Assembly: GCA_000004695.1 (NCBI GenBank)
Contig: CM000151.3
Span: forward strand, 64,001 to 128,000
Length of the DNA: 64,000 bases
Direction of reading: 5' to 3'
Source: Dictyostelium discoideum
Lineage: Eukaryota
Shown here: piece by piece, positions 32,262 through 56,704 of the stretch
Numbering within the stretch: position 1 is the first letter of the stretch
Layout: every line of letters begins with the position of its first letter
Program-made: the position numbers and the translations under genes
Notes under the pieces: generated by a model
Database searches by the model: none
Seen by the model: only the letters and a program-made list of their open reading frames with translations
What the model was told of the DNA's origin: nothing

Positions 32262-32735
32262 TTTTTAAAATTATTCAAGTTTGGAAAATGTTTAATATTT
32301 TAAAATTTCACTTGTTTTTTTACTTAATATATTTAATTGAAAAAATACTGTTTCTTAAAATAGATTTTAAATTGATTTTTTTAATTAATTTCAAAAAAAA
32401 AAAAAAAAAAAAAAAAAACATTTTATAATTTAAAAAAAAACTATTGTAAATTAAAAAATAATAAAAAAAAATCAAATTTAAAAAATTTATTACAGATCTG
32501 AATTTTATTGGAAATAAAAAAAACTGATGGGTTTTTATTTGAAATTAATTATTTTTATTATTTTTTATTTTTTTTTAAATTTTTATTCCAAATTATGTGT
32601 ATCTTAAAAGAAAAAAAAGAAAAAAAATTTTGAGAAAAATTAAAATTTCCTTTTTAAGTTTTTTATCTATTGTGCACTCTTTTTTTAAAAAAATTGATAA
32701 TTGGATATTATTTAATTTTAAATTATTTTTATAAT

Positions 32736-32770
<35 letters not shown>

Positions 32771-33474
32771 AAGGCAAGACAAGGGTAAAAAAAAAAAAAC
32801 TTTAAGTTATAATTTGTAAGGGTGTAACATTCCCAATACAAGAAGTTAATTATTTATATATATCTATATAGGGGTTTTTATAGTATTATGTGCTATAGCA
32901 TTTTAATTCTTATTTTCTAAAATTAATATTAATTATTTCTCTGAATAATTAATTCTTTTTAAATTAATTTCTCATTAATTTCTCATTAATTTTTTTTCAA
33001 TATTTTAAAACTATTTATACTAAAATCTATTAACCTCTTTGGTCTTATATTTGAAAAATCTTAAAAATTAAAATAAATAAAATAATTTAATTTAAATATA
33101 ATTAATTATTATATTATGGAAATGTTTAAACATTACATTTAATATAATTTTAATTAAATTAACCCATTTGAAATTTCAATAGAATAAACATTAATTAATA
33201 GAATATTTTAATGTTATAACAAGATATTTTTGACCTCTGGTTACAGTAGGTGTAAAAATTTCAGCATTAAAGTGGTGAAAAGTTATTATTATGCCTTTAA
33301 GAAACTGTAAAAGATATTGTTTGCTAAGGTTAAAAATTAAAAAATTATGCTCCTAGACACAAAGTAATTTATTATAATTTTATATATAATTATAATTTAA
33401 TATATATAATTATAATTTTATCAATTTAGATTTTAAAAATATATTTTTTTTTTTTCTATTTATTTGTTAAGCAA

Positions 33475-35331: not shown

Positions 35332-35687
35332 TTTTTAAAATCATTCACCTATTGAATAAAAAAAAAAAAACTTTTAAAAATTTTAAAAAATTATAGTAAA
35401 TCACTCAAATAAAAAAAAACTAATAAAAAAAATCATTTAAGTTTATTATAGATCTGTAATATATTGGTATTAAAAAAATTAAAGGGTCTTTTTATTTGGA
35501 AGGAATTATTTTTTTTTTTTTTAATATATTCCAAAATTATCTATTTTTAAAGAAAAAAAAAAAAAAAAATTGATAAAAATAGAAATTTCCTTTCAACTTT
35601 ATCTATTATCTGCTCTTTATTTAAAAAATTGATAATTTTTAAATTTAAATTATTTTAGTAATAATATTTTTTTGTTTTTTTTTTTTT

Positions 35688-35718
<31 letters not shown>

Positions 35719-35745
35719 GTTTAAATTCGTTTTAATTTCTTTTTG

Positions 35746-35776
<31 letters not shown>

Positions 35777-35809
35777 TAAAAGAAAGAAAAGAAAAGAAAG
35801 AAAAGAAAG

Positions 35810-35840
<31 letters not shown>

Positions 35841-36019
35841 AAAAGAAATAAAAGAACAGAAAATAAAAGAAAAGAAAAAAAAACATGCTCAGAGCCTAAC
35901 TAAAAATAAATAAATAAATATACAAAAATAAAAAAGAATAATAAAAGAAAAATAGTAATAAAATTGCTTTTTTAAAATTTTTAATTTATTAAAAATAAAA
36001 TTTTTAAACTCTTTATTTA

Positions 36020-36238
36020 TTATTTTCTTCGATTAAATAAACAAATTGAATATATTTTCCTATTACAATTAAAATTATTAATCAAGAAAAGTGGATAATT
36101 TTTACCAAAATAAAAAGATACAAATGTTTTATTATCTTTTTTGTTATTGTTGTTGATGGTCGTTTGAATTTGTTTTTTTAAATCTTGAATTTTATCTATA
36201 ATTTGTCTTTGATTTGCTAGATCGAACCATTGCATCAT
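36020..36238 (-). pseudogene. 3'-terminal fragment (last ~60 codons) of an F-box/LRR-like family gene
   Basis: QRQIIDKIQDLKKQIQTTINNNNKKDNKTFVSFYFGKNYPLFL matches the C-termini of the 616- and 618-aa paralogues. Unrelated sequence lies upstream. Confidence 0.6.
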
Positions 36239-36546
36239 ATCAAAATTTTGCTCGGAATTGATAAAATTATTATGTGAACAGACACGAAATATGTTCGTTA
36301 TACAATTTAAAAAAATAATGCAGTTTCTACTATTATTATTATTATTATCATTACCAATGTTATTTAAATAACATAATAATCCTTTAAAAATATTATCATT
36401 TTTTGGAATTTCATCTAACCCGATTGATTTCTCACCAAAATCAGTGTTATTTAATGATGTTTCTAATGATGTTGATGATGGTGAGTTTGATTTTTTTAAT
36501 TCTAATAGATATTTGATGATTTTATTTGAACCTGTCTCGATTGAAT

Positions 36547-36951
36547 TTAAAAGATCTGTTTTTGTTGGTAATTGAATTCATTTATAAATAATTTATAAAT
36601 TTCTAAATTCTTTGATTGTATTATTGCAGTTGATACATAAATTGGTGAAGAGTAATAATACCTTTGAATTTTGAAAAAGTTTCTATAAAATTTGAAATCA
36701 TTTTTAATTATTTCAAACAATTTCTTTAAATAAATTAAATCTTTACGCCAACTAGATTGATCAGACTCTTTACGCCAACAAGTTTCACCAAATTCTAAAT
36801 ATCTACAATTTCTATAAACTTTTTCTTTTAAAATACTAATTTGATTTGAATCTATTAGTTTAGTTATTGACGATACTGAATCGTAACTAAATGAATATTG
36901 GTTATACATAAATGAGAATATCTTTTTATAAATTGCTTTATTTCTAAACAA
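36547..36951 (-). pseudogene. Fragment of a second duplicated gene family; a near-identical copy lies at 42300..42668
   Basis: ORF KLFRNKAIYKKIFSFMYNQYSFSYDSVSSITKLIDSNQISILKEKVYRNCRYLEFGETCWRKESDQSSWRKDL... starts at TTG. The frame is open upstream only to an in-frame TAA and has no canonical donor. An adjacent upstream ORF encodes ..EIIERIKIVKKRKREYEEEHERKENTNSFNKIIK*. Both lie inside the duplicated block. Confidence 0.35.
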
Positions 36952-37360
36952 TTTCCAAAATAATATTTCAATTGGTTCTATATTATCTGTAATTGTTTAT
37001 TTTATGATTTTATTGAATGAATTAGTATTTTCTTTTCGTTCATGTTCTTCTTCATATTCTCTTTTTCTTTTTTTTACAATTTTAATCCTTTCAATTATTT
37101 CTTGTTTATTTAAGTGATTTATTTCTATACAATATTTCTTTAATTGATTTTAAATTCTTTTTCTCTAATTCACAATTATTATCATTATCTTTATCATCTT
37201 ATTAATTAAAGATGATAAAAATATATAAATTATTTTTCATTGTTGTGGTGGTGGGGGAAATTAAAAAATAAAAAAAAAAAAATATAAAAAAATATAAAAA
37301 AAAAAAAATAAAATAAAACAAATAAAAAACATTTTTATGGTGTAACGGATTTTATTTAGT

Positions 37361-37391
<31 letters not shown>

Positions 37392-37439
37392 TTTTTTTTT
37401 TTTACTATTTCTTTGAAATTTCGTTGAATATTATTTTTA

Positions 37440-37600
37440 AACGAATTCTAATGACTACATAACCCCTGTAAGCGGTTAGCAGCCCCTTGTAATCCTTACA
37501 ACCAGTGTAGCCCACAAATCCGGCTATTCGTCTTACAGTTCCTATTAGCCGCTTACAGGGTTACTTAGTCATTTTGCGCGTTGGCGGTGTAATTAATATT
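37440..37600. other. GC-rich island with a ~20-bp imperfect inverted repeat (CCCCTGTAAGCGGTTAGCAG ... CCTATTAGCCGCTTACAGGG). Candidate structured ncRNA or MITE-like element.
   Basis: About 50% GC within a region that is more than 80% AT. The inverted repeat was read directly. It contains CCCACAA, which resembles the Dictyostelium upstream sequence element (DUSE) of ncRNA genes, and CCTTACAACCAG, which resembles the class-I RNA motif CCTTACAGCAA. A second copy with a deletion lies at 43200..43290. Confidence 0.4.
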
Positions 37601-38028
37601 TATTTATATTTTTATTATTCGCTGGAAAAAATTCATTATTTTATTAGATATTTTATGATACGTAATTTCTCATATATCTAATAAAATATTGAATTTTCTA
37701 AAATTTTTTTTTCCAGCGAATAATAAAAAAAAAAAAACTGTTTTGGTTAACCATGGGGTGATTTATTGTAATTTTTTAATAATTTTAGTTCTGTTTTTTT
37801 TTTTTAAATGGAGATATCAGAGAGATTATTATGATATTTTGAATAATTGGATCATAGTAATAAACAATATTTTTAATTTTTTTCTTTTTTTTTTTCTTTT
37901 CATTCTTTTTTTTTTTCTTTTCATTCTTTTTTTTTTAGTACTTAATCTTTATTTTTTTCATCTTTCAAAATAAAAAAAAATATTTATATAAATTTTAACT
38001 TTAAATTAAATAAATAAATAAATTTTAG

Positions 38029-38452
38029 AATGACTGAAGAAGTGCATAAATTGAAAATTACAATATTTACTGATAAAGGGAGATCAACAATAAGTGGTGG
38101 AGGTAAGTTAATTAGAATTATTAATTTATAAATATTTAATTTTGGTTTATATATTAAAAAATGTAACATTTAATTTCATTCTTCTGGCTTTTTTAAAAAT
38201 ATAGATTTTCCTCTACCTGTATTACCTTATCCTGCACCATATACTTTTAGATTATTTGATTACGAAATTGAAGGCCCAAATTTAACCAATAAAGAATTTA
38301 AAGTAAAAACAGGTAAAATTGAATACAAAGGAGAAGAATTTGATATTCCTTCATCATCTAAGGGCTCATGGAGAGGAGTAGATGAAGAAATGGATTTAAT
38401 CTATGTTACAATATATCCAAGTAGACAACCAAAAAAAGTTTTTCATTATTAG
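38029..38452 (+). CDS. Small hypothetical protein (about 107 aa) with two exons, 38029..38101 and 38205..38452. Copy 1 of two.
   Basis: ATG..GGTGGAG then a gtaagt donor, and an aaatatag acceptor, phase 1. Product: MTEEVHKLKITIFTDKGRSTISGG-DFPLPVLPYPAPYTFRLFDYEIEGPNLTNKEFKVKTGKIEYKGEEFDIPSSSKGSWRGVDEEMDLIYVTIYPSRQPKKVFHY. Copy 2 at 43780..44202 is about 93% identical at the protein level, and its splice sites are conserved. Confidence 0.55.
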
Positions 38453-38757
38453 ATCTTAAAAACAGATCTGAAACAATTAAAACAAAAATAAAAAATTTTA
38501 AAATTTTATATAAAAAAATAATTATGATTAAAAAAAAAATATGTGTGGAAAAAAAAAAAAATTAAAAATTAAAAATATATTTGTTTATGGTGTTATGTTT
38601 TTTGGTAAGGTTTAAAGTGATCAAAAAATTATCATTCAAACTTGTAAAAAAACAATAATAATAAATAATAATTTAAAAACAAAATAAAGATTAATTTGCA
38701 TTATCCAATTTTTTTTTTTTTTTTTTTTTTTTTGATTTTGTTTAATTTGATTCGATT

Positions 38758-38792
38758 CTATTTGATTTGATTTGATTTGATTTGATTTGATT

Positions 38793-38800
<8 letters not shown>
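38758..38800. repeat. (GATTT)n pentanucleotide repeat followed by poly-T. Also present in copy 2 at about 44815..44862.
   Basis: Read directly. Confidence 0.9.
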
Positions 38801-38844
<44 letters not shown>

Positions 38845-40272
38845 CATTATAATCTTTTTTCCAATTATTTCCATTATATATAAATATATTGGAAAATCTT
38901 CCATTTTCCATTTTCCGCCATAATATGGATTTTTTTTTTCAGGAAATTGGCCAACACTATTGTATACTATATTCATAACAATCTGGAAGGTTGATGGCTA
39001 TATCAAGAGGATCATCAGAAGTCCATGGGAAGGGAATTTATTGGTTTCGGAAACATCATATGGATGAATGATACATTTGAAATTTAAAACATTATTATTA
39101 ATTGAGGCATTTTTATTAGATCGAGTTAAAATTTTATTGTGGAATTTTCATAATTAATGTGGAATTTTCCACTTTTTTTTTTTTTTTTAGAAATTTTTCA
39201 CCCCTACCCCTTTTCAATTTTATTTGAAAAATAGAATGTTGATATTTGATTTGATAATTTTCAAATTATTTATTAGTAATTGTAATTAATTGAAATAGAA
39301 ACCTTATTTTATTTTATTTTTTTTAAATATAATTACTGATAGTTTTGTACTGTAATTGGTAACTCTTTATTATTGTTTTGAAAAATGGATTATTAATACG
39401 ATTCAATTCTTCTTAATACTTATTATGACCTTTAATTTTAATTTCTTTAAAAAATATGTTTCTTGATTTTTGTTCTTGTTTTGTTGAAATATTATTTATT
39501 AAATTTTTAAATTCTTTAATAAATTCATCAACTAATTCCTTATCATTATATAATGTAAAAAAAAAAAAAAAACTCTGTTTATGACAACAAAACAGTCACA
39601 ATTTTTTTAACTATAAAACAAAAATTATTATCTTATTTTAAATTTTTACTTTATTTTTTTTCCATGCGGGTTCAAAAAAAAAGCTTTTTTTTTTTTTTTT
39701 TTTTTTAGTAAACAAAATTTTTTTTTTTTTTTTTTTTTTTTTTCGCACCCCTTCATTTACTTATTTTTCTTGTTGATATCATTAAAATCAATAGTTTTTT
39801 TCAAAATGTCAAAAAGAATTATTAATTTCAATTGGTTCATATAGATTGGGAAATTAATGAATCATTTAATAAAGACAATTATTAACTTTATTTATTTTAA
39901 ATTGTAGATATATTCTCAAATCCAAAAACAGGTATGGGTCATTCAAATGATGCTCTTTCACTTTTTATAAAAGCTTAAAGAGAGATTGGTTATTATCCAA
40001 ATATTGATAAAGCAATTTTCACAACTCCAGTCACAACTTTAGCTAAAACCACTATTGATTTAACTGCCCATGTTATAACTATATTAATGTGGTGTTGAGA
40101 TCATTACAAACTATGAAGTATTTCTAGGAAAGAGATGAAGGTACTAACAAGATCTTACTTTTCAAAAAGTTGATTTAACATTGACTCTTTAATAAATTGA
40201 ACATCTTCATTTGTTTCAAATAAGACAAGATCAAAAAATACTACTTTAATAACATTATTGGGATCCAAATAT

Positions 40273-41064
40273 TTACCAACGTGGCATTTTTTTAAATCTT
40301 GGGTGATGAAATTTCATTTTAGAGAGTTTATCGATTGTATTGGTTACTAAAGCAATAAAATCTTGATTTTTCCAATCATTGTGAGAAGCTGGTGATACAT
40401 ATGGCATCATTAAAGCTGGCTTGGAGTTCCAAGTTCCAACCTATTATAAATATATATATTAATAATTGTTTTGATTTATACCACCATTTTTAACTTTGAA
40501 ATAAAAATTACCATAAATACTTACATGTGCACCCAAACCCCAAAGTTCTCTCCACTTTTCACACTCTTTGATCAATTCGTTTTCTGGTTTAATATTACAT
40601 TTTGAGAATTTTAATACGAAAACATGTCCTTCCAAAATACCAAAAAAGACACAACATAACCATACTCTTCCATGTTCTCCTCCTTTTAAATCATATAATA
40701 AAACACATGCCTTAACTAATTTCAATGGGGTATCTATAAAATAATGTAATTTTTTGATATTAATGTTGACCCAAAACCATGAAGATTGAACTACTTGTAT
40801 ATACATTCTTTTTACATCAAGTAAAGGAATTTCTGATTTTCTTCTAGAGTAATACATCTTCATCAATACAGAGTATAAAACTTTTGGTAATTGTTGATCT
40901 GAATATTTAAAAACCTTTGAGCCATATAAAATACGTTTACAGTGAGTTGGTGGTATAATATCATTATAATCGTTCGTTATTGTGGAATTTTGTAAATTTG
41001 AGGTTGATGTTAAAGTATCTGGTTTCTGAAGAGTTGTAGTAGTTGATTCATTTGATAATTCCAA
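40273..41064 (-). pseudogene. 5'-truncated copy of a duplicated gene (PD-(D/E)xK-like family). Exons 41064..40525 and 40440..40273 are retained.
   Basis: Encodes ..ESTTTTLQKPDTLTSTSNLQ..KRMYIQVVQSSWFWVNINIKKLHYFIDTPLKLVKACVLLYDLKGGEHGRVWLCCVFFGILEGHVFVLKFSKCNIKPENELIKECEKWRELWGLGAH, then a gtaagt donor, then VGTWNSKPALMMPYVSPASHNDWKNQDF..PRW*. The upstream part of the gene is replaced at 41080 by the duplicated A/B block. Confidence 0.5.
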
Positions 41065-41232
41065 TTTGGGAGCTTGAGCAGACTATGCTCCTAGACACAA
41101 AGTAATTTATTATAGTTTTATATATAATTATAATTTTATATATATAATTATAATTTTATATATATAATTATAATTTTATCAATTTAGATATTAAAAATAT
41201 ATTTTTTTTTTTTCTATTTATTTGTTAAGCAA

Positions 41233-42290
41233 TCAAGAAAATTCCTCTAAGGGTGGATAATTTTTACCAAAATAAAAAGATACTAATGTTTTATTTTCAC
41301 TTTTGTTATTGTTGATGGTAGCTTGAATTTGTTTTTTTAAATCTTGAATTTTATCTATAATTTGTCTTTTATTTACTATGCGATAATAATCATGATATGG
41401 AAAATCTAAAATCAATTCATTTATTTAAATTGAGTTTGGTGATTGAAATAATGAAATTACATCATCATAATTATCAAATATATCTATTGGTAATTGAATT
41501 GAATAAAGTGTTGTATTTGGATACTTTTTCATACAATTTAAAATGAATGAAATGAAATATGAAGCAACATGCACATTTCACCCCATTCCAAATCGTCAAT
41601 TACTGTCTGAAATTGCATGTCTTAATAAACCTTTAGGTGTAGAATTAAAGTTTTGGAAAAAGTTACCATGTAATTCGTTTATTGATAAATATTTTTACAG
41701 TCTCCAATTTATATATTGTTTTTGTAAATTTGATAATTTTAATAAAGTAATTGAATTAAAAATTGATGGTTTACAATTTAGTCATTTAGTTAATAATGAT
41801 CTAACTCAATTAAAACATTTAAAACTTTATTCTTGTCCTTCTTCATTACATGCAAGTACATTACAACCAGGTGCTTTGATATCTTTGAATAAAAGATGTC
41901 CAACTTTAAAAACACTTGCAATTCAGGTACCATTTCATTTAATAAACAAACATTATCATGGATGTAAAATAACTAAACAATGTTTTAATGGAGATAATCT
42001 TTCAAAAAATATTTCCAAAGAATGGAATGAATTGATAGTCACACTTTCTAATAATACATCAATTGTGAATCTAACCATTTCAAATTTTCCATGCGAATAT
42101 TTTCTAGACCCAATAAAATGTTATCAATATTCAAATTTAGAATTTAATGAAAATACAATCAAATGTATATCAGATGGATTTTATAATCTTATTAAAAATA
42201 ATAAATCCATAAAATTTTTAAGATTAATAAATATTGATTGTAGTGTTTCTCCAAATTCATTTTCAGCTTTACTATTTAATTCAACGATTA
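41233..42290. pseudogene. Rearranged fragments of the F-box/LRR-like gene 33475..35331. The 3' end lies on the minus strand (41233..41540), abutted to an internal segment on the plus strand (41543..42290).
   Basis: ORF 41233..41415 (-) equals the last 60 aa of the 618-aa gene. ORF 41543..42385 (+) equals its central 270 aa. The two pieces are in opposite orientation, so there is an inversion breakpoint near 41540. The 3' flank (41085..41232) is the same as 33345..33475. Confidence 0.7.
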
Positions 42291-42299
42291 AAACATTAG

Positions 42300-43090
42300 T
42301 TATAAATAATTTTCTAAATTCTTTGATTGTATTATTGCAGTTGATACATAAATTGGTGAAGAGTAATAATACCTTTGAATTTTGAAAAAGTTTCTATAAA
42401 ATTTGAAATCATTTTTAATTATTTCAAATAATTTCTTTAAATAAATTAAAATTAAATCTTTACGCCAACTAGATTGATCAGACTCTTTACGCCAACAAGT
42501 TTCACCAAATTCTAAATATCTACAATTTCTATAAACTTTTTCTTTTAAAATACTAATTTGATTTGAATCTATTAGTTTAGTTATTGACGATACTGAATCG
42601 TAACTAAATGAATATTGGTTATACATAAATGAGAATATCTTTTTATAAATTGCTTTATTTCTAAACAATTTCCAAAATAATATTTCGATTGGTTCTATAT
42701 TATCTGTAATTGTTTATTTTATGATTTTATTGAATGAATTAGTATTTTCTTTTCGTTCATGTTCTTCTTCATATTCTCTTTTTCTTTTTTTTACAATTTT
42801 AATCCTTTCAATTATTTCTTGTTTATTTAAGTGATTTATTTCTATACAATATGATTTTGCAATTTCTTTAATTGATTTTAAATTCTTTTTCTCTAATTCA
42901 CAATTATTATCATTATCTTTATCATCTTATTAATTAAAGATGATAAAAATAATTTAAATATATAAATTATTTTTCATTGTTGTGGTGGTGGGGGAAATTA
43001 AAAAATAAAAAAAAAAAAAAAAATATAAAAAAAAAAATAAAAAAAAAAAAACAAATAAAAAACATTTTTGTTGTGTAACGGATTTTATTT

Positions 43091-43137
<47 letters not shown>

Positions 43138-44727
43138 TTTTTACTATTTTATTAAATATTTATTTCTTTGTTTGAATATTATTTTTAAACGAATTCAAAT
43201 GACTACATAACCCCTGTAGCCCACAAATCCGGCTATTCGTCTTACAGGGCCTATTAGCCGCTTACAGGGGTTGTGTAATTAATATTTATTTATATTTTTA
43301 TTATGGGCTAATTCTTTTTTTATTATTTAATGATAATTTATATTAAAATATGATATATTATTAATTAATATTTAATATTAATTTGTTAAATATTTTATTA
43401 AATTATAATCTCTTTATAAAAAGTGAGAAATTACTGTCATAAAATATCTAATAAAAAAATAAATTTTCTAAAAATTTTTTTTCCAGCGAATAATAAAAAA
43501 AAAAAAACTATTTTGGTTAACCATGGGGTGATTTATTGTAATTTTTTAATAATTTTAGTTCTGTTTTTTTTTTTTAAATAGAGATATCAGAGATTATTAT
43601 GATATTTTGAATAATTGGATCATAGTAATAAACAATATTTTTAATTTTTTTCTTTTTTTTTTTTCTTTTCATTCTTTTTTTTTTAGTACTTAATCTTTAT
43701 TTTTTTCATCTTTCAAAATAAAAAAAAAATATTTATATAAATTTTAACTTTAAATTAAAATAAATAAATAAATTTTAAAATGACTGAAAAAATGCATGAA
43801 TTGAAAATTACAATATTTACTGATAAAGGGAGATCAACAATAAGTGGTATAGGTAAGTTAATTAGAATTATTAATTTATAAATATTTAATTTTGGTTTTT
43901 TTATTAAAAAATGTAACATTTAATTTCATTCTTCTGGCTTTTTTAAAAATATAGATTTTCCTCTACCTGTATTACCTTATCCTGCTCCATATACTTTTAG
44001 ATTATATGGATACAAAATTGAAGGCCCAAATTTAACCAATAAAGAATTTAAAGTAAAAACAGGTAAAATTGAATACAAAGGAGAAGAATTTGATATTCCT
44101 CCATCATCTAAGGGCTCATGGAGAGGAGTAGATGAAGAAATGGATTTAACCTATGTTACAATATATCCAAGTAGACAACCAAAAAAAGTTTTTCATTATT
44201 AGATCTTAAAAACAGATCTGAAACAATTAAAACAAAAATAAAAAATTTTAAAATTTTTTCATAATTGAATTGATATAAAAAAATAATTATTATTAAAAAA
44301 AAAATATGTGTGGAAAAAAAAAAAATTAAAAATAAAAAATATATTTGTTTATGGTGTTATGTTTTTTGGTAAGGTTTAAAGTGATCAAAAAATTATCATT
44401 CAAACTTGTATACCAGTGTTCGACCTTTTTCCACTTTTGGAAAAAAAGGGTGTTTTTTTTAATTTCCCTTCCATTCCATGTTTTTTTTAAAAACTTCCAT
44501 ATTAATATAATATTTTTTCCATTTTTTTTTTTTCAATTAACCAGGGAAGGCCGAAATTTTTTTTTTTATTTTTTTTTTGTAATATCTTAATAAACGTTTA
44601 TTAATTAAAAAAAAAAAAAAAAAAAAAAGTAAAATGATAAATAATATTAATAAAAAAACAATAATAATAAATAATAATTTAAAAACAAAATAAAGATTAA
44701 TTTGCATTATCCAATTTTATTTATTTA

Positions 44728-44776
<49 letters not shown>

Positions 44777-44858
44777 ATTTTGTTTAATTTGATTCGATTC
44801 TATTTTATTTTATTTGATTTGATTTGATTTGATTTGATTTGATTTGATTTGATTTTTT

Positions 44859-44899
<41 letters not shown>

Positions 44900-47800
44900 C
44901 ATTATAATCTTTTTTCCAATTATTTCCATTATATATAAATATATTGGAAAATCTTCCATTTTCCATTTTCCACCATAATTTGGATTTTTTTTTTTCCGGA
45001 AATTGGCCAACACTATTGTATACTATATTCATAACAATCTGGAAGGTTGATGGCTATATCAAGAGGATCATCAGAAGTCCATGGGAAGGGAATTTATTGG
45101 TTTCAGAAACATCATATGGATGAATGATACATTTGAAATTTAAAATATTATTATTAATTGAGGCATTTTTATTAGATTGAGTAAAAATTTTATTGTGGAA
45201 TTTTCATAATTAAAATTATTTTTTTTTTTTTTTTTAGAAATTTTTCACCTTTACATTTTCCCTATTTTTTCTTTTTTTCACCCCTGCCCCTTTTCAATTA
45301 AAAAAAAATAGTGAAAAAAAAAGTAAATTAATAAATTATAAAAAAACAAATAAAAATAAATAAATTATATTATTAATTTTATTTGAAAAATAGAATGTTG
45401 ATATTTGGTTTGATAATTTTCAAATTATTTATTAGTAATTGTAATAAATTGAAATAGAAACCTTGATTAAGAGGTACCTCATTTTATTTTATTTTTTTTA
45501 AATATAATTACTGATAGTTTTGTACTGTAATTGGTAACTCTTTATTATTGTTTTGAAAAATGGATTATTAATATGATTCTTCTAAATACTTATTATGACC
45601 TTTAATTTTAATTTCTTTAAAAAATATGTTTCTTGATTTTTGTTCTTGTTTTGTTGAAATATTATTTATTAAATTTTTAAATTCTTTAATAAATTCATCA
45701 ACTAATTCCTTGTCATAATATAATGTAAAAAAAAAAAAAAAAAAAAACTCTGTTTCTGACAACAAAACAGTCACAATTTTTTTAACTAAAAAACAAAAAT
45801 TATTATCTTATTTTAAATTTTTATTTTATTTTTTTTCTGTGTGGGTGCAAAAAAAAGCTTTTTTTTTTTTTTTTTTTTTTTTTTTGGTAAAACAAAATTT
45901 TTTTTTTTTTTTTTTTTTTTTCGCACCCCTTCATTTACTTATTTTTCTTGTTGATATCATTAAAATCAATAGTTTTTTTCAAAATGTCAAAAAGAATTAT
46001 TAATTTCAATTGGTTCATATAGATTGGGAAATTAATGAATCATTTAATAAAGACAATTATTATTAACTTTATTTATTTTAAATTGTAGATATATTCTCAA
46101 ATCCAAAAACAGGTATGGGTCATTCAAATGATGCTCTTTCACTTTTTATAAAAGCTTAAAGAGAGATTGGTTATTATCCAAATATTGATAAAGCAATTTT
46201 CACAACTACAGTCACAACTTTAGCTAAAACCACTATTGATTTAATATTCAATGAAAACAGTTGGAATCAAAATAAATCAAAACCAATTTCAATTTATAAT
46301 TTAAATGGTAATTCAATTGAATTGAAATTATTTTATAGTGTATTAGAAAACAGTTTTAAATGTAATGAAATCCAATTCGATGAATGGATTGAATTAGTTA
46401 CAAAATCAAATGGAAAATCTTCAAAAAGATATTCAACATTCCACATTCTCAATAATCAAAATTAATGAATCAATCATTTTAAATAATATTAATAATAACA
46501 ATAACTAAAATAATAAAAAATAAAAAATATCATAATCAATAGTTGGCAAACGTACACTATTAACCAATGCTTAAGTACCAGGTTGTGTTGAAAATGATCC
46601 CAAAGAATATATACCTATCACCTTGGTTTGTAATTGGAAATGAATAATCTGTATATTCTCAAATAAACAATTAATGGTGTCGTACTATCAACTGGTTTCA
46701 AATACAATACCACATTACAATCTTGTTCAGAAAGATATTATTATTTTTATATATTTTTTAAATGTTATAAATTAATTTTTCTTTGAAAAAAAAAAAAAAC
46801 AAAACAAAATAAAAAGTACTTTTTTTTTTAAATTTAATCAAATTAATGGAAAATGTCCAAACCAAATTACAAGAATTTAAAACAAATTAATAAACTATTT
46901 TTATTTGTATAATGAATTTGAAAGTTGATTTTATTTTATTTTATCATTTGATAGATGATATTTTGGTGAATAATAATGAAAATTGTGATCCAACTTTTTA
47001 ACTGCCCATGTTATAACTATATTAATGTTGTGTTGAGATCATTACAAACTATGAAGTATTTCTAGGAAAGAGATGAAGGTACTAACAAGATCTTACTTTT
47101 CAAAAAGTTGATTTAACATTGACTCTTTAATAAATTGAACATCTTCATTTGTTTCAAATAAAACAAGATCAAAAAATACTACTTAATAACATTATTGGAA
47201 TCCAAATATTTAGCAACGTGACATTTTTTTAAATCTTGGTGATGAAATTTCATTTTAGAGAGTTTATCGATTGTATTGGTTACTAAAGCAATAAAATCTT
47301 GATTTTTCCAATCTTTGTCAGAAGCTGGTGACACATATGGCATCATTAAAGCTGGCTTGGAGTTCCAAGTTCCAACCTATTATAAATAGATATTAATAAT
47401 AGTTTTGATTAATACCATTTTTAACTTTGAAATAAAAAAATAACCATAAATACTTACATGTGCATCCAAACCCCAAAGTTCTCTCCACTTTTCACACTCT
47501 TTGATCAATTCATTTTCTGGTGAAATATTACATCTTGAGAATTTTAAAACGAAAACATGTCCTTCTAAAACACCAGCGGAGGCACAACATAACCATACTC
47601 TTCCATGTGCTCCTCCTTTTAAATCATATAATAAAACACATGCCTTAACTAATTTCAATGGGGTATCGATAAAATAAAGTAATTTTTTGATTTTAATGTT
47701 AACCCAAAACCATGAAGATTGAACTACTTGTATATACATTCTTTTTCCATCAAGTAAAGGGATTTCTGATTTTCTTTTAGAGTAATACATCTTAATCAAT

Positions 47801-48010
47801 ACAGAGTATAAAACTTTTGGTAATTGTTGATCTGAATATTTATAAACCTTAGAGCCATATAAAATACGTTTATAGGGAGTTGGTGGTAAAATATCATCAT
47901 TATCGTTCGTTTTTGTGGAATCTTGTAAATTTGAGGTTGATGTTTAAGTATCTGGTTTCTGAAGAGTGGTAGTAGATTCATTTGTTAATCCCAATTTGGA
48001 AGCTTGGGCA
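42300..48010. repeat. Segmental duplication, copy 2, comprising units D and E. It includes copy-2-specific segments at about 44400..44630 and 46210..47000.
   Basis: Collinear and near-identical with 36593..41080. Contains the second GC-rich island (43200..43290), the second copy of the small gene (43780..44202), the (GATTT)n repeat, and the longer copy of the PD-(D/E)xK-like gene. Confidence 0.8.
43780..44202 (+). CDS. Small hypothetical two-exon protein, copy 2 (paralogue of 38029..38452)
   Basis: MTEKMHELKITIFTDKGRSTISGIG / DFPLPVLPYPAPYTFRLYGYKIEGPNLTNKEFKVKTGKIEYKGEEFDIPPSSKGSWRGVDEEMDLTYVTIYPSRQPKKVFHY. The intron positions match copy 1. Substitutions are mostly non-synonymous-tolerant, so both copies appear intact. 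Confidence 0.55.
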
Positions 48011-48972
48011 GATCCATCTGAAATAGGTAACCAACATACCCTCCAGCTCTCATATGTTGTTGAAATACCATAAACATCTTCCTGACCATACATTTCAGCG
48101 ATACTTAACACGTAATTCAACGTTTGGCCATGAAGCTTATCATTCTCCATAATGTTTTTACTTGGCTTTTTAACTTCAATAATACCTATAGGTAACCCAA
48201 TTGAATTTGCAAGTACCATAATATCAGGTTTCAAATCACTAACACCAAAATAGCTTGAACAATATGCATTTATACCACATGATTTGATAATGTCATTAAC
48301 TGCGGTTCTAACATAAAAAGCAATGTCGGATTCTGTGGAGTAATGGAGGTAGCTTCCGTTTCCAAGAGACCCCCATAATAAATTGTGGCATGGAATTGGT
48401 TTTATGTCTGCTAAAATTTCAAAACTTTTCGATACCAAAGTTGCAGGTTGATGATTTTTCCCAACAGATGGATTTGACATTGAGCCTGACTTCTCACCCA
48501 AAGGAGGTAAAGCATTAGCAAAAATATCCTTCTTTGGTTCTGTATTATGTAAATTGTATATTAATTAGTTAAAAAGTTTTAAAAATTAATTTATTATGAT
48601 TTAACCTACCATACAAAATATTCTTCTTTGGTTCTGTATTATGTAAATTGTATAATTAATCAGTTAAAAAGTTTTAAAAATTAATTTATTAATTATGATT
48701 TTAAAAGGGATAAACCTACCATATAAAACATAAATATGAGTTGGAATATTGTTTTCATTTAATTTGGTTTCGATATCCAATTCTTTTTCCCCCAATCCAT
48801 CACCTACTGGTTGTTTATCGAAGATTGATAAATCTTTTGTTTTATATTGTACTCCATTATCGCTAATATATTCTGCTATTATTTTTAAAACATCATATAT
48901 TCTGTTAACTGACTCAAATTTAATTTCATCTTTTTTATTATTTAAATAAACAATACAACTAAAAGAAACCAT
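47110..48972 (-). pseudogene. Longer copy of the duplicated PD-(D/E)xK-like gene. It carries an in-frame nonsense codon and indels.
   Basis: Exon 1 (48972..~48718) encodes MVSFSCIVYLNNKKDEIKFESVNRIYDVLKIIAEYISDNG..., ending at a gtagg donor. It continues ..EKSGSMSNPSVGKNHQPATL..DLKPDIMVLANSIGLPIGIIEVKKPSKNIMEND.. (D...E-x-K, resembling a restriction-endonuclease-like fold). There is a TAA at 47944-46 where copy 1 has TTA (Leu). There is a frame change between 47981 and 47799, and single-base deletions in the last exon relative to copy 1. Confidence 0.5.
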
Positions 48973-49022
48973 TATTATAGTTACTATTTAATAATATAGT
49001 TAAAAAAAAAAAAAGAAATATG

Positions 49023-49063
<41 letters not shown>

Positions 49064-49435
49064 AAAAAACTACTTTTGGAGCCAAAACAATTCCAATTAG
49101 TTTTCATTATAAAATTATATATTTCTGAAAATAGTAAATTCAATTATTGATATAAAAATAATTACTTCTAAAAATTATAATAGTATTAATAACCCTTTAA
49201 TTCTGTCGAAAATTCTTAGAATTTATAAAAAATGTAGGAAATGTTTTGTAATTAATATTATAAAAATAAATTTTAATTTATTATAAATTAATAACTTTTT
49301 TTTAGACCAAACAATTATTAATTCTTTTTAGGAAGTTTTTCTTTTTTTAAAAAATTAATAATTTATTTTTAGTTTATTCAAAATAAACCATAAAATAAAA
49401 TAATATTACATTTGATCTAAACTAATAAAAATTGA

Positions 49436-49470
<35 letters not shown>

Positions 49471-49811
49471 TTTTTTTTTTATTTTATTTATTTACAATAG
49501 TTTATTTTTGTTGATCGATTTGTTATATTATTGTCCATTTTATTGAATTTAAAAAGTGTACATTTGTGGTCTTGTGAAGATATTGTTGTAACGATGATCA
49601 GCAGCTTGAACAGAATTTAATGATTCTGAATTATTAAAAGAATTGTTATTATTTGAAATAGAGTTTTTATTTAATTTTGGTGAGTTTAAAATTTGATATA
49701 ATGATTCTATTATTAATAAAAAAAAATAAAAATCAATTAATATTTTCATTAAAAACTAAAATTTTTAAATTGTTGTGTGTGTTTTTTTTTTATAAAATAC
49801 ATACTAAATAA

Positions 49812-49868
<57 letters not shown>

Positions 49869-50949
49869 TTAATTAATACTTGAAGTTAAAAAATAAAAGG
49901 AAATGAATTTAATTTTTATAATTTTTTGAAGTTTACAAAATATTTTTTATAGTTTTATTAATTCTTTTTTTAATTTTGATGTTATTGTTATTGTATTTGA
50001 TTGAATATAAAATATTTTTTTTTTTTTTCAACAACTATTTAAGTAAGTAAATCCTTACTTGTGAAATTGAATTTAATAAATACCTTTTTGTATAAATAAA
50101 GGTAATTTGTAATTTAATGTTGACAACATTGTTAAATTACAAAATTTAAAAATAATTTAATTAAAATTAATTATTATTTTTTAAAATGTTCCCACACCCT
50201 GTCACAATCACACAAGTACATCGTATGATTTAAAACAAGTAAAAAATTATATAATTAGATTATTACTCAGTTGGATTTATGATGTAAATTTAAAACATAG
50301 AGTATATATATATCATGTATATTCGTAATAGAAGACAAGTAACAGTATTTTTATTGATATTTTTTAGTTTTCTTCAAAATAATTATTTCATTTTTTTTTT
50401 TTTTTTTTTTTTTTATTAAATCCAAAGAAAATTAAAACTTGGTATTTAAAAAAACTCTCGTTGATTAAAATAAAATCAATTCAAATTTAATATATTAAAT
50501 CAACTATATTTCAGTTTTTATTTAATTTTATTATTAAGTATAATAATAATAATAATAAAAATAAATAAAAAATAATTTAAAAAATAAAAAAAATAAAAAA
50601 TTAATTAAAAAGGATTTAATTTTTATTTTTATTTTTATCTTTGTTTTTATTTTATTTTTATTTTTATTTTTATTTTTATTTTTATTTTTATTTTTATTTT
50701 TATTTTTATTTTTATTTTTACTCTTATTTTATTACTTTTTTATTACTTTTTTTATTTTATTTTTTTTTTATATTTAAGGTTTTTAATTTTTATTATTTTT
50801 ACATTTTTTTGTAATGAGACCTTAATTTTAAAATGTATAGTTTTTTTTAAGTCAAAAGATTTAAATATTATGAAAATATTAAGCTCCACAAATCAATTAA
50901 AAAAATTATACTAATTTAAAAAATTATTCGGTTTTTTTGTTTTTTTTTC

Positions 50950-50985
<36 letters not shown>

Positions 50986-50999
50986 CTCCCAAACTAAAC

Positions 51000-52100
51000 A
51001 TGATAATAAATCAGCAAATTAAATTATTAAATATTTTAAAATTTTATGGTCAAAAAAAAAGTTTAGATATTTTAAATAATGTCTCAAATAAAATAAAACC
51101 ATTTATTAGTGATAAACGTTTAAAGAGATTTGAAGATTCAATTAATAATAGAAATAAAAGGTAGATTATTTTTTTTTTTTGATTTTCTATTTTTTTTTTT
51201 CTTTTTTTTTTCTTTTTACGTTAAAAAAAAATTTAAAAATTTAAAAATAATAAAATTAAATGAATTATTTAAATTATAAATATTTAAATATTTAAATAAA
51301 ATAAAAAAAAAAAAAAAAAAAAAAATAGATTTATTATAGTTTGTGAGAATTTAGATAATCCTGGTAATTTCGCAGCGGTTGTTAGATCAGCAGATGCTAT
51401 TGGTATTCAAAATTTATGTTTAATTAATGAAGGTGGTAATTTAGATTCAAATTTTGAAAAATATGATAGAGTTAGTTTAGGTTCAGGTAAATGGGTAACA
51501 GTTAATAAATACTATTCAACAACTAAATGTATAGAGAAATTAAAAGAACAAGGTTATTCAATATGGGCATCAGATTTATCTGCAACTGCATTCCAGTTTG
51601 ATCAACTTATTTTTCAACCAAATAAACTCACTCCTCAATTATCTTATTTTTTATCAGAATCAATTAAAAATGTAAATTCTTTAAATAATAATAATCAAGA
51701 AGAAGAAGAATTAATTAAAAATTTAGCTATAAATGAATTGTATAATAATAATAATAAAATTGTAAATAATAATAATAATAAAAATTTCATAAGAAATGAT
51801 GAAAAGATTGCACTAGTATTTGGTAATGAATCTAATGGTATTTCAGAATTAATGAGATCATTATCAGATAGAAGGTTTTATTTACCAATGGTTGGATTTG
51901 TAGAATCTTTTAATATTAGTGTTAGTGTTGCAATGACTTTATCTTTCTTAAAAATGCAAGGAGTAATAACTCCTGATCTATCACCATTGGATAAAATAAA
52001 ACTATTAAATAAATTTGTTTTATCCTCTATACCAAAGAATAAACTGGTTTTAGAAAAACTTGGTTTTGATAGTGATTTAATTTTAAAGTTAATAAAATAA
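51000..52100 (+). CDS. SpoU/TrmH-family RNA 2'-O-ribose methyltransferase (SPOUT class). Two exons: 51000..51160 and 51329..52100.
   Basis: Exon 1: MIINQQIKLLNILKFYGQKK...NNRNK, ending at a gtagat donor, phase 2. The acceptor is aaaatag. Exon 2: FIIVCENLDNPGNFAAVVRSADAIGIQNLCLIN (motif 1), ALVFGNESNGIS (motif 2) and ESFNISVSVAMTLSF (motif 3). An N/E-rich insertion lies between motifs 1 and 2. Confidence 0.8.
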
Positions 52101-52404
52101 TAATAATAAATTAATAAAAAAAAAAGTTAAAAATGATAAAAAAAAAAAAGATAAAAAAAAGTTAAAAAATGAAAAAGATAAAAAAAAAAAAAACCAACAT
52201 TAATGTAAAAAAAAAATAAAAAAAAAAGGTAAACAATAATTAAAGTAACTTAAAAATAATTTTTTATTAATTTTTTTTTTTTAATTAAATAAAAAATAAC
52301 ATTGGTTTTTTTTATTTTTATTTTTTTTTTTTTGAAAATATATATAGATTTACAAATGGGTTCAAAATAAAAATAAAAATGGGGAACAACAATCAAAGTT
52401 GATT

Positions 52405-52436
<32 letters not shown>

Positions 52437-53037
52437 ATTGCCCTTTGGGGTTTATCTCTTTTTATCTAAATATAGGTTCACCTTGTTGTTTATAAAAAAA
52501 ATTTATAAAAGAGAAGATAACAATTTTATTTTATTTTTTTTTTTTTTTAAAACAATTATTGTTATTACTTTTTTTATTTTATTTTTATTTTTATTTTTAT
52601 TTTTATTAATTATTTTTATTTTATTTTTTTTTTAAAATATTTTTTTATTATTTAAATATATTAAATGTTGGAATTTGATTAATAATGACGATAATTTAAA
52701 ATAAGATTTTATCGAGATATAATATTTTCATAAATCCCCATATAATTTTTTTAACAATTTTATTTTATATATTATTGGGATCATCAATTCTTTAAAAGAA
52801 TATACATAAAAAGAAAATTAAAAAAAAAAAAAAAAAAAAAAATGAAAACAAATTAAAAATATTTTTTTTTTTTTTTTTAAAAAAAAACAAATAAATCACC
52901 CCAACAGATAAAAACAAAACAAAAAAAAATAAAAAACAAAACAAAAAAAACACACTCCCATATTTACATGCATACATTAATAATTATAATCACTTTGTTA
53001 ATGTATTGTTTTTTTTTTTTTTTTTTGAAGTGTGTAC

Positions 53038-53068
<31 letters not shown>

Positions 53069-53704
53069 CAAATTCATTATACAACCACAATTACCACAAT
53101 ATATATTTATTTTTATTTTTATTTTTATTTTTTGGTTGTATATTTTTTAATATTATTATTAATATTAATAAACATTTTTTTTTAATTTATTTATTTTTTT
53201 TTTTTAAAAAAAAAAAAGTACTCATTATCTTTTTTTTTTGAAAAGTTTTATTCCTTTTTTATTTTTTTTGTTTCTTTTATTTTATTTTTTCTTTTTTGTT
53301 TTTTATACTAATAATAAATAATTATTTATTATTTCAATTTTTATTTGTATATATATACCACACACACACATTTTAAATCATAAAATTTTTAATCTATTAT
53401 AGTTTTTAATCTTAAAAAATCATACCAAAAATTTAAAAAAAGAAACAATAATAATAAAGAATAATAAAAAAAATAAAAGAATAATAAAAAAATAAAACCA
53501 AAAGAAATAATAAATAAAACAGAAAACAGAAAAAAAAAAAAAAATAAAGAATAAAAAGTAATTTTTTTTTTTTTTTTTTTATTTTTTTTTTTTTTTCTTC
53601 TTTTATTATTAATTTATAAACTCCAATTGGAAAATAATAAATTATTAATTATTTTTTTTTTTTTTTCCAGAAAGAATAAAAAAAAAAAATAAAAATAAAA
53701 TAAA

Positions 53705-53990
53705 ATGGATAGATTATTAAATTGTCCAAATTGTTTGAAAGTTTTTAATAATCCAAGACAGTTAGAATGTGATCATATATTATGTACAAGATGTATTGAA
53801 GGAGTTTATAATCCAGGTAGAACACCAATAATAAAATGTCCAGTTTGTGATAAACATTCAATAGTTATAACATCAATTGATAAATCATTTCCATTGATTC
53901 ACTGTATTGAAGAGTTATTAACTTATAAATATAAAGATTGTAACTATGATGATAGCCTTTCAATTCCATTAAATAATAGTACTGGTAGTA

Positions 53991-54040
<50 letters not shown>

Positions 54041-56704
54041 TTTGTTATTAATAATAGTAATAATAAAAATAATGGAGCAACAACAACAACTACAACAACA
54101 ACTACTACTACAAATTCAAATTCAAATTCAACAAAATCAAAAGTAGTTGTTAATGATTCATCACCAAATTTAATAAGTGCATCACCAAAAGGGTTAGGTA
54201 GTTCACAAGGTTCATTAACAACAATTAATAATCAAAAGAAATTAACATTATCTCCACAAAGAGCAAGTTCAACTACAACAACAAGTGTAAATAAACCACC
54301 ATTGAAATTAAAGGCAATTTCAAGTCCACCAATTACACCAAATGTATCAACACCAGAGAGATGTTTTGTAATTAATGATAAGAATAAACATGTTATGATA
54401 TCATCAGAAACTACGATTCACAATGTTAGTGGACTATCATCAATTAGTACACCAATAGTTAGTGATGCTGCAATTGCAGAATTAAGTAAATGTAATGACC
54501 ATGATCAAAAGAAATTTACAATATTCTGTACAGATTGTGATCAATTACTATGTGATGAATGTTTAAATAACAATCAGCAACAACATGAAAATCATCAATT
54601 AAATAAAATCATTCAAGAAGCTGAAAAAAGAATTGGAGATATTGAATCAATGATAATTACAACTTCATTATGTCCAAATAGATTAATTAATAAAAAGAAT
54701 AAAATTGAAAAAATAATTCAAGATAGTGCATTGGTTTTAAAAGATACTAAATTGAAAATTACTACTGATATCGATACAATGATTGAAAATTTAAAAGAGA
54801 GAAAGAATGCATTGATCAGTCAAATCGATAAAGAATATGAAGAACAGAAATTAGAATTAAAAGATCAAATTGAAACTATTAATACAACAATTGTTGATAT
54901 TCAAAATAATACATCAATCACTCAAGGTATTGTTTCATTATATCTTAATCAAGTTGATTCTGAAATGTTATCAACTTCATTATTGAAAAAGTATAGTGAT
55001 CTAAAAAGAATGGATCAATTATCTGATAAACTTTCAAATAATTTAGAACAAAATATTGAATGGAAATGGGAACCTGAATATCATTTCCCACAATTATTTA
55101 CTCGTTCAAATGGTGAAAAAACTACTGTTGTATATAGAACTAAAAGAGTATCTGTTGGTGTATCTTCTTCACCAACTGGTACTGGTAGTAATGGTACACC
55201 ACAGCAACAACAACAACAATCAGCAAATGGTAATCCAACAATTATTACAACACCACCATTACCACCAATTTCAGCAAATTCACCAAGTCCAACATCATCA
55301 TCATCATCAACATTAATTGGTAATATTATTAAAAGATCATCACCACCTCATCTACCACTAAGTAGTCAAAATTATGATAATTTTGGTTCAACACCACCTA
55401 GATTAACTACAAAATTATCTTCACCAAATTTATCAATTTCAATGCCAACTTTTCCACAATCAAATTCTGTTCAACAGAATGGTAGTACTTCATCAATAAT
55501 GAAACAACAATCACATGGTAGTAAATTAAATGATAATATTAATACCAACAATAATAATTCACCAAGTCCAACATCATCATCAACAACATCTACAAATGGA
55601 TCAAATACAAAAATTCAATTAAAAAATCCAGTATTTGGTAAATTATTAACTAGAAAAGATTCTGTAATTACAGCAAGAAGAAATTGGATTTATGGATTTT
55701 CAGATCATCAAGTTGAAATTTATGATAATGTTACAAAAGTTTGGAGAGGTGGTTCAAAAATACCAAAGAAATCAATAGAGTATAGTAGTATTTATGATAA
55801 TAATTGTACAATCTATAGATTTGGTGGTAAGGAGACACCAAATGATATCTATTGTTATAATGTTGATAGAGATATTTGGGAACACAATAAAGTTAAAATA
55901 CCATCGAAAAGAAATGCTCATTGTTCAGTTTTCGATGGATTAAGATACATTTATTTAATTGGTGGTGCTGATAGAGATAGTAGTAAATTATTGGAAAGAT
56001 TTGATATTGAAACTCAACAATGGACTAAACTAGCATCCATGAAATTCGGTCGTAGTTATTTCAATGCTTTCTATCACCCTACTAAAAGATGTATTTACGT
56101 ATTGGATGGCTATGTTAATAAAGACAAGAAATCCTCTGTTGAAATGTACTCACTTGAAAAGAATCAGTGGAGTGTGATTTGTGAGATAAATCAACCAAGA
56201 TATCTTAGTGGTGTCTCATTTGATGGTTCAAAATATATAAATATAATTGGTGGTGTTGATAGATCAAACTCTCGTGATATTAAAACTATGGAAAGATTTG
56301 ATACATCAACTCATAAATGGGAAATACTAAATAATGAACCAAAATCATTACTATCTCATACTTCAAGTTCAATGAATTTAATGGTAGTTCAATCACCACA
56401 ATTAAAGAAAAATAATTCATTTTCTTCAATTTCTTCTCATTCATCTTTAAATTCTTCATCTTCAAATAATGGTATCAGTGGTAGTGGTGGTAGTGGTGGT
56501 GATAATGAAATTCCAACTGAAAAAATGCAATTCTTTAATACTTCATTTTTTGATGGTGAACAATTCATTTTTTTCTATGGTATAAATATTGATGAACATG
56601 GTCCACTCTTATATAAATTTAGTATAAAAACAAAGAAATTTGAAAAGATTCCAATCGATAATACTTTGGATTTATTTAGTACTCTAATTTTTGTTTCAAA
56701 ATAA
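53705..56704 (+). CDS. RING finger / B-box / coiled-coil / kelch-repeat protein (TRIM-like architecture)
   Basis: 999-aa single ORF. C3HC4 RING: CPNCLKVFNNPRQLECDHILCTRCIEG...CPVCDK. B-box: CNDHDQKKFTIFCTDCDQLLCDECLNNNQQQHENH. Coiled coil at ~aa 300-420. Four to five C-terminal kelch-type blades (IYRFGGKE..IYCYNVDRDIWE; YLIGGADRDSSKLLERFDIETQQW; IYVLDGYVNKDKKSSVEMYSLEKNQW; IIGGVDRSNSRDIKTMERFDTSTHKW). Long S/T/N/Q-rich linkers. Confidence 0.8.

Follow-up and report, generated by a model that had tools for sequence, protein, structure and literature searches.

A very probably disabled gene for a predicted nuclease-kinase fusion (DUF5898) and its truncated duplicate in Dictyostelium discoideum

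Minimal kinases of the Rio and Bud32 type act as ATPase switches, and in Ire1 and RNase L, which combine a kinase fold and a nuclease, the binding of a nucleotide to the kinase domain licenses the nuclease. A gene that can be compared with both groups, and with the restriction enzymes HsdR and BpuSI, is found in Dictyostelium discoideum AX4, on a stretch of 64,000 nucleotides of chromosome 2 (GenBank assembly GCA_000004695.1, contig CM000151.3, positions 64,001 to 128,000 of the forward strand) that is here called the window and to whose first letter all positions refer. The gene is present there twice, as a full-length copy B and as a 5'-truncated copy A, and its product is predicted to join an N-terminal nuclease domain to a C-terminal kinase-like domain, DUF5898. 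Copy B is very probably the recently disabled allele, in strain AX4, of a low-copy cellular nuclease-kinase gene, and copy A a by-product of a segmental duplication. The gene and DUF5898 are already catalogued, and the affinity of DUF5898 to kinases is known; a literature search, which fell short of a full one, returned no account of the HsdR-type domain, of the fixed fusion or of its presence in Pandoravirus, and nothing relevant on the gene model DDB_G0271324 or on nuclease-kinase fusions of this kind.

The described systems closest to the N-terminal domain are the nuclease domain of HsdR (PF04313, HSDR_N) and the type IIG enzyme BpuSI (PDB 3s1s). Unlike these, the DUF5898 fusion is a eukaryotic nuclear gene, lacks a methyltransferase or specificity partner and has a kinase-like partner instead. 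Moreover, no helicase domain was found by Pfam in the repaired product of copy B (539 aa, with its premature stop read as Leu and a lost A restored), whereas a bacterial HsdR (L019) has the superfamily 2 helicase/translocase motor. The Pfam model of DUF5898 spans 109 positions, covers the kinase core only and describes the function as unknown. This core shares with Rio2 and Bud32 the bilobal fold, the Gly-loop, the Lys-Glu pair, the catalytic Asp, the metal-binding Asp and the lack of an activation segment, and Rio2 (1zar) is a top domain-level Foldseek match; it differs from them in its fusion to a nuclease and in being shorter after the DFG-like Asp, past which it continues for only ~25 residues (one helix). 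Ire1 and RNase L are similar in carrying a kinase-fold nucleotide-binding domain and a nuclease in one polypeptide, and they are a precedent for nucleotide-licensed activity, but their nuclease is a C-terminal KEN-domain RNase, whereas here a PD-(D/E)xK domain stands at the N-terminus, so that the order is reversed. Homology with both is limited to the kinase fold, Ire1 appearing only among generic kinase matches, and the repaired copy B product has no Pfam match to the KEN domain.

Two predicted domains and a conserved fusion

The exon model of copy B (Table 1) matches an intact 540-aa allele, P0001, with 89% identity. The N-terminal half of the encoded protein is classified, from its fold and motifs, as a PD-(D/E)xK nuclease of the HsdR-N type, for which metal-dependent phosphodiester cleavage is predicted. 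A first-pass annotation of the window had pointed to a PD-(D/E)xK-like motif in this gene, and the D-x14-E-V-K spacing indeed lies in what is modelled as a real domain of this class, the peptides that were quoted being encoded as given. The model of the copy B exon-2 open reading frame (ORF), built with 20 homologues, has a predicted local distance difference test score (pLDDT) of 86.5 and a predicted template modelling score (pTM) of 0.83, and displays the alpha-beta-beta-beta-alpha-beta core of restriction-endonuclease-like folds, with the catalytic Asp on beta2, the (D/E)xK motif on beta3 and a Glu on the upstream helix. When N-domains were scanned alone, HSDR_N was matched in 12 of 19 homologues at E<=0.1 (the best at 6.4e-7) and Cas4 in one, and the family member P0026 has a precomputed PF04313 match. 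A motif scan of prokaryotic genomes found nearly the same sequence, RPDVVVFLNGLPVGVIEVKKPGAE…QLQTY, in type I HsdR subunits of Rhodobacterales; these matches extend over only ~46 residues and stand at the level of motifs, so they name the type of nuclease and give no evidence for a bacterial orthologue of the fusion.

The DUF5898 half is best described, from sequence profiles and models alike, as a protein-kinase-like domain. The first-pass annotation had given GGxHGRVW…VFVLKF as the conserved C-terminal half of the gene; these peptides lie outside the nuclease and correspond to the Gly-rich loop and the beta3 lysine strand of a kinase. Residues 390-502 of the repaired product match DUF5898 (PF19250) with 137.5 bits against a cut-off of 28.9 (E 2e-40), and this family is a member of the Pfam PKinase clan (PMC9758233). 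A profile of 15 homologues matches protein kinases of the PDB, and its alignment with CaMK1G (E 8e-7) contains, in order, the Gly-rich loop, the beta3 Lys, the alphaC Glu, the HxDLK loop and the DFG-type Asp. The AlphaFold model of P0001 (pLDDT 79.9, pTM 0.71) has a bilobal kinase fold, for which Foldseek retrieved Rio2, CK1delta and Abl from the PDB at probability 1.0 over ~140-160 columns. Neither an activation segment with an APE motif nor the alphaF-alphaI lobe is present in the domain and, because it ends so soon after the DFG-like Asp, it would be an atypical minimal kinase-like domain and not a eukaryotic protein kinase of the conventional kind.

An exhaustive profile search retrieved 2793 cluster representatives at E<=1e-3, 942 of them at E<=1e-30, and almost all of the best 150 matches cover both domains in one stretch. 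Among 160 members, the nuclease residues E, D, E and K are kept in 143/152, 144/155, 141/157 and 155/157 proteins, respectively, and the kinase residues K, E, D (of HxD) and D (of DFG) in 158/159, 156/157, 146/154 and 141/141; both catalytic sets are retained in 109 of the 134 fully covered proteins. The position of the Asn in HRDxxxxN is occupied by His in 93/152 members and by Asn in 57/152. The nuclease-kinase architecture thus appears to be fixed across ~940 sequence clusters. A Ser-rich segment, (G)LPPLGExSGSxS, is kept in most members just upstream of the nuclease domain (columns ~205-225 of the family alignment; window ~48480-48520) and, as pure speculation, might serve the fused kinase as a regulatory stretch or as a phospho-acceptor.

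Named cellular members come from D. purpureum, Tieghemostelium lacteum (two paralogues), Synstelium polycarpum and the chytrid Lobulomyces angularis. An intact gene is also present in D. cf. discoideum (L050), both active sites of the D. purpureum orthologue contain degenerate residues, and on a 45-kb environmental contig that carries a homologue (L005) the neighbours are ordinary eukaryotic genes. In the L. angularis protein (P0039, KAJ3392393.1, 1046 aa) the family profile is matched in two separate stretches, and the nuclease-kinase module may be tandemly repeated there, or two genes may have been merged by annotation. The only viral members found came from a structure search of BFVD: proteins of three Pandoravirus species (A0A2U7UEV6, A0A811BR09 and A0A0B5JBF6) match the two-domain model over 526 of 536 columns with E 2e-19, from which it follows that genes have passed between giant viruses and amoebae or other protists. 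A scan of IMG/VR viral contigs with the family alignment returned zero relatives.

Lesions in AX4 and comparison with other assemblies

Window positions 46997-48012 align with 40059-41082 (copy A) at 94% identity over 1026 columns, and each copy has lesions of its own. In copy B, the ORF is closed downstream of the nuclease domain by a TAA at 47944-47946, which falls in a range (residues 283-307) that is disordered, with low pLDDT, in the P0001 model. Copy A reads TTA at this site, as do L001 and L002, two assemblies labelled D. discoideum from each of which a 21-kb stretch was compared. Copy B is also without one A in GTTATTAA(A)GTAG, at 47179-47190, and this deletion shifts the frame just ahead of the DFG-like Asp and over the last 30 codons. 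In copy A, a C has been gained in CATCAC(C)CAAG, at 40298-40308, and the resulting frameshift takes away the catalytic loop; copy A also has substitutions near the Gly loop (CCVFFGILEG), and it ends at 41082, at about codon 262 of 539, lacking exon 1 and the entire nuclease half. Both frameshifts are absent from L001 and L002. The first-pass annotation had thus read the locus correctly as a duplicated gene decaying in both copies, with a stop in one copy where the other has TTA, changes of frame and a missing 5' half.

These lesions could be artefacts of sequencing or assembly in an AX4 gene that is truly intact, an idea to which the short homopolymer contexts of the 1-bp indels lend something; it is, nevertheless, extremely improbable. 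Both copies recur without a single changed letter, and with the TAA, the deletion of A and the insertion of C, in an independent assembly (L003, GCA_054883475.1) whose identity to the window over 30249-49843 is 99.7%; provided that the two assemblies do not go back to the same reads, this excludes an artefact, and the TAA is a substitution and not an error of homopolymer length. Since L003 shares the lesions while L001 and L002 have TTA and no frameshifts, they are both real and derived. L003 comes from an AX4-like strain in which a third, older paralogue lies on another chromosome (L049, 7998-9382 of contig CM142511.1). This paralogue is heavily decayed, with no exon 1, with frameshifts and in-frame stops, and with AD and QVK replacing PD and EVK, and the strain therefore has three copies, none of them intact.

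Copy A is the sequence annotated in AX4 as DDB_G0271324. This model maps with zero mismatches to 41364-41284 and 41082-40276; its exon 1 (41364-41284) is identical to the 3' end of a 618-aa gene at 33526-33606, so that a fragment of a neighbouring gene is spliced to copy A, and it terminates in the frameshifted tail HHPRFKKMPRW*.

In AX4, L001 and L002 alike, the gene is flanked by a divergent SpoU-type methylase gene and a convergent polyketide synthase gene, window 46056-56000 is collinear with both other assemblies, and the 21-kb stretches of L001 and L002 contain one gene copy each. The L001 gene is intact and encodes 540 aa, so that with the gene of L050 there are intact copies elsewhere, as the first-pass annotation had suggested checking. 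The L002 gene has an in-frame genomic deletion of ~153 bp (L002 ~10732-10734; window 48100-48251) that takes out the PD…EVK…QxxxY core and spares the kinase half, in a mirror image of the AX4 lesion. As for the neighbouring polyketide synthase gene, ~410 bp of its 3' end are left in AX4 (46056-46466, with an in-frame stop inside, duplicated within 39216-40063), and the model at the equivalent position has at least 3099 aa in L001 and 1175 aa in L002.

The position of the stop suggests another reading, in which the gene has undergone fission: copy B would now encode a stand-alone nuclease of 282 aa (290 with an optional micro-exon) that includes the predicted ubiquitin-like N-terminal extension, the kinase being dispensable or supplied by copy A. 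The TAA lies in the disordered range, the ORF upstream of it is intact with all nuclease catalytic residues kept, the two halves have separate gene models (P0004 and P0029), and L002 drops the opposite half, the nuclease core, by its in-frame 153-bp deletion. On the other hand, the +C frameshift ends the copy A kinase short of its catalytic loop, which makes activity impossible, the kinase part of copy B carries a second lesion, as neutral decay predicts, and the fusion is essentially invariant in the ~940 clusters, which suggests that the domains need each other; fission is thus improbable. Subfunctionalisation of copies A and B was likewise considered and judged unlikely, the copy A kinase being truncated ahead of the catalytic loop.

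Divergence at synonymous sites (dS) between AX4 and the assemblies labelled D. discoideum is 0.09-0.17. The Nei-Gojobori ratio of nonsynonymous to synonymous divergence (dN/dS) of AX4 copy B is 0.32 against L001 and 0.18 against L002, which points to purifying selection over most of the history of the gene, and it is 0.56 between copies A and B, where counts are small and constraint looks to have been relaxed after the duplication.

Origin of the copies and structure of the locus

Copies A and B are the right-hand ends of the two units of a tandem segmental duplication (36595-41082 and 42306-48012). The derived unit has lost 752 bp (equivalent to 46245-46996) between two TTTAA pentamers, a microhomology, and at the junction between 41082 and 41083 copy A abuts a copy of 33346-33795 with 0-1 nt of homology. 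The copies go back to a local segmental duplication, with junctions of the end-joining or slippage kind, and not to transposition, and very recent rearrangements have made a mosaic of the region. According to the preferred reading, that of a disabled allele and a duplication by-product, copy B was disabled by the change of TTA to TAA in the inter-domain linker and by the 1-bp deletion before the DFG-like Asp. A local tandem duplication of ~5.7 kb, with its right breakpoint inside exon 2, gave rise to copy A, which, because of the place of this breakpoint, had neither promoter nor exon 1 nor nuclease domain from the start, and which then gained the +C frameshift.

The first-pass annotation had proposed that a nuclease ORF derived from a transposon or other selfish element was spreading by means of its duplicated block. 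In favour of this are the nuclease domain, the presence of a pair of copies in the window and of a third, decayed one on another chromosome of the same strain, and the homologues in giant viruses, but the observations that follow make it very improbable. Synteny is conserved, with methylase, gene and polyketide synthase in the same arrangement and one copy per stretch in L001 and L002; the annotated proteins that were found amount to 1-3 copies per genome; and homologues are cellular genes in dictyostelids and a chytrid, with an ordinary eukaryotic neighbourhood on the L005 contig and no relative among the IMG/VR viral contigs. No terminal inverted repeats were found, a scan for inverted repeats giving only poly-A/poly-T; there are no ORFs of the size of a transposase or reverse transcriptase nearby, no large ORFs in the duplicated units and no flanking tRNA genes. 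The duplicated unit includes unrelated genes (the polyketide synthase 3' end and Dicty_CAD), it ends in junctions, either blunt or with 5-nt microhomology, that connect it to other local segments without target-site duplications, and a dN/dS of 0.18-0.32 also argues against such an element. The annotation had itself stated that a gene that is single-copy elsewhere, with conventional cellular homologues, would count against a selfish origin, and by this measure the idea fails.

Several further features of the locus are of a more descriptive nature. The window is poor in G+C (~20%), its poly-A/T runs are long, and its introns are short and AT-rich. The region of exon 1 (P0001 residues 1-83) has, in the AlphaFold2 model, the secondary structure E-E-H-E-E-E with pLDDT 60-74, and its product has a weak Pfam match to FERM_f0 (E 0.09); this extension is restricted to close Dictyostelium relatives and is unaligned in distant homologues. 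The short direct duplication reported in the intron by the first-pass annotation exists and is larger than described (48521-48621 against 48615-48731, 83% over 117 columns, E 3e-29). It is present in AX4 and L002 and single-copy in L001, and it yields a potential, optional in-frame micro-exon of 24 nt (48610-48633, EPKKNILY) that is used in the gene models P0002 and P0004. Each duplication unit contains a gene for a 106-aa Dicty_CAD protein (PF05720; L003 7274-7696 and 12995-13417, window ~43800-44230 and ~38090-38510), so that a gene of a cell-adhesion family was copied as well. Tandem paralogues encoding 616/618-aa proteins, 90% identical, lie at 30411-32261 and 33475-35331, and in 41543-42385, between the duplication units, there is a 768-bp inverted fragment of the second paralogue (33982-34749 against 42313-41546, 99%). 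An ORF of 1214 aa at 24998-28642 (+), with a very long coiled coil and a globular C-terminal domain, is unrelated to the nuclease-kinase gene.

Table 1. Positions in the window of the nuclease-kinase gene copies, their predicted motifs, their lesions and associated features.
Feature	Position	Strand	Remark
Copy B, DUF5898 nuclease-kinase gene	47093..48972	-	full-length, very probably disabled; three exons
Copy B exons 1, 2 and 3	48972-48720, 48539-47458, 47376-47093	-	exon model
Exon 1, N-terminal extension of ~84 aa	48720..48972	-	beta-grasp (ubiquitin-like?) prediction
Tandem duplication, ~94-bp period	48521..48731	-	intron 1 and both exon edges
Predicted PD-(D/E)xK (HsdR-N type) catalytic core	48112..48339	-	all motifs intact in copy B
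Helix Glu in STESDI	48322-48339	-	
PD in KPDIMV	48214-48231	-	
EVK in IIEVKKP	48163-48183	-	
QxxxY in GQTLNY	48112-48129	-	
Premature TAA	47944..47946	-	ancestral TTA (Leu); codon 283 of exon model
Kinase-like (DUF5898) motif region	47165..47619	-	
Gly loop KGGAHGRVW	47593-47619	-	
beta3 VFVLKF	47539-47556	-	
alphaC Glu	47485-47511	-	
Intron 2	47377-47457	-	within kinase-like region
Hinge ALMMPY	47335-47352	-	
Catalytic loop FHHQDLKKCHVA	47212-47247	-	
1-bp deletion, one A lost in GTTATTAAAGTAG	47179..47190	-	not in copy A, L001 or L002
DFG-like VVFFDL	47165-47182	-	now out of frame in copy B
Copy A, 5'-truncated duplicate	40059..41082	-	codons ~262-539 and 3' flank
AX4 gene model DDB_G0271324	40276..41364	-	271 aa, chimera; 0 mismatches
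Parental unit of tandem segmental duplication	42306..48012	.	3' two-thirds of copy B, polyketide synthase remnant 46056-46466, Dicty_CAD-like gene
Derived unit	36595..41082	.	88-94% identity to 42306-48012
SpoU-type methylase gene, part	51738..52100	+	divergent upstream neighbour in all assemblies examined

Possible function and meaning for the family

For the intact members of the family, we infer, tentatively, a mechanism in which a kinase-like switch that binds or hydrolyses ATP, or autophosphorylates, gates the nuclease; by analogy with the systems described above this is possible, though doubtful. A nucleotide-driven switch is likelier than a conventional protein kinase, because the residues of the ATP site and of catalysis are kept but the substrate lobe is absent.

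A role in biological conflict can also be envisaged, in which the protein would serve in conflict or immunity as an effector whose restriction-like nuclease is armed by a kinase switch, and in which the lesions would represent the presence/absence polymorphism typical of defence genes and not just the loss of a gene that can be spared. Its nuclease is closest to the nuclease domains of restriction enzymes, different and independent lesions are seen in AX4, L002 and the paralogue L049, together with the degenerate active sites in D. purpureum, full-architecture homologues occur in amoeba-infecting Pandoraviruses, and T. lacteum has two paralogues. All of this is circumstantial, however; PADLOC defence models were unmatched save for a marginal PD_DExK (E 0.009), the dN/dS values show purifying selection of an ordinary kind and no indication of positive selection, and PD-(D/E)xK domains serve in repair and RNA processing too, so that this role is unlikely. 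It is similarly unlikely that DUF5898 proteins as a whole constitute a widespread, so far unrecognised eukaryotic and Pandoravirus class of ATP-gated HsdR-type endonucleases acting in genome defence or host-virus conflict. If they did, the lesions would be loss-of-immunity polymorphisms, with a stop and frameshift in AX4, a deletion of the nuclease core in L002 and an intact gene in L001.

Some observations weigh against the view of copy B as the disabled allele of a nuclease-kinase gene. The repaired copy B product reaches 21.5 bits with HSDR_N (PF04313; E 2e-4), below the gathering threshold of 25.1, with the match at D…EVK, and a nuclease-only sequence profile found no significant relative in the PDB, so membership among the nucleases rests on fold and motifs; the best PDB match of this profile, ribosomal protein S3 (E 1.8), was taken as chance. 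In addition, the function of the intact protein is purely inferential. Because the disordered linker is precisely where the stop falls, copy B may be more than a plain pseudogene and could go on producing a functional nuclease that stands alone. L001 and L002, for their part, are so divergent from AX4 that they may represent cryptic species and not strains.

Taken alone, the locus is an ordinary one, in which a rearranging region of a laboratory strain contains a pseudogene and its truncated duplicate. Of practical use is the finding that two gene fragments are combined in the chimeric AX4 gene model DDB_G0271324. The consequences for the family are broader: a Pfam domain of unknown function appears as the kinase half of a fixed fusion that has kept its two active sites and is found in about a thousand clusters, with sequences from protists, from one chytrid and from giant viruses. 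An uncharacterised family thereby receives a concrete biochemical hypothesis, that of an ATP-gated restriction-type nuclease, and D. discoideum isolates with intact, nuclease-deleted or kinase-truncated alleles would provide natural controls for it.

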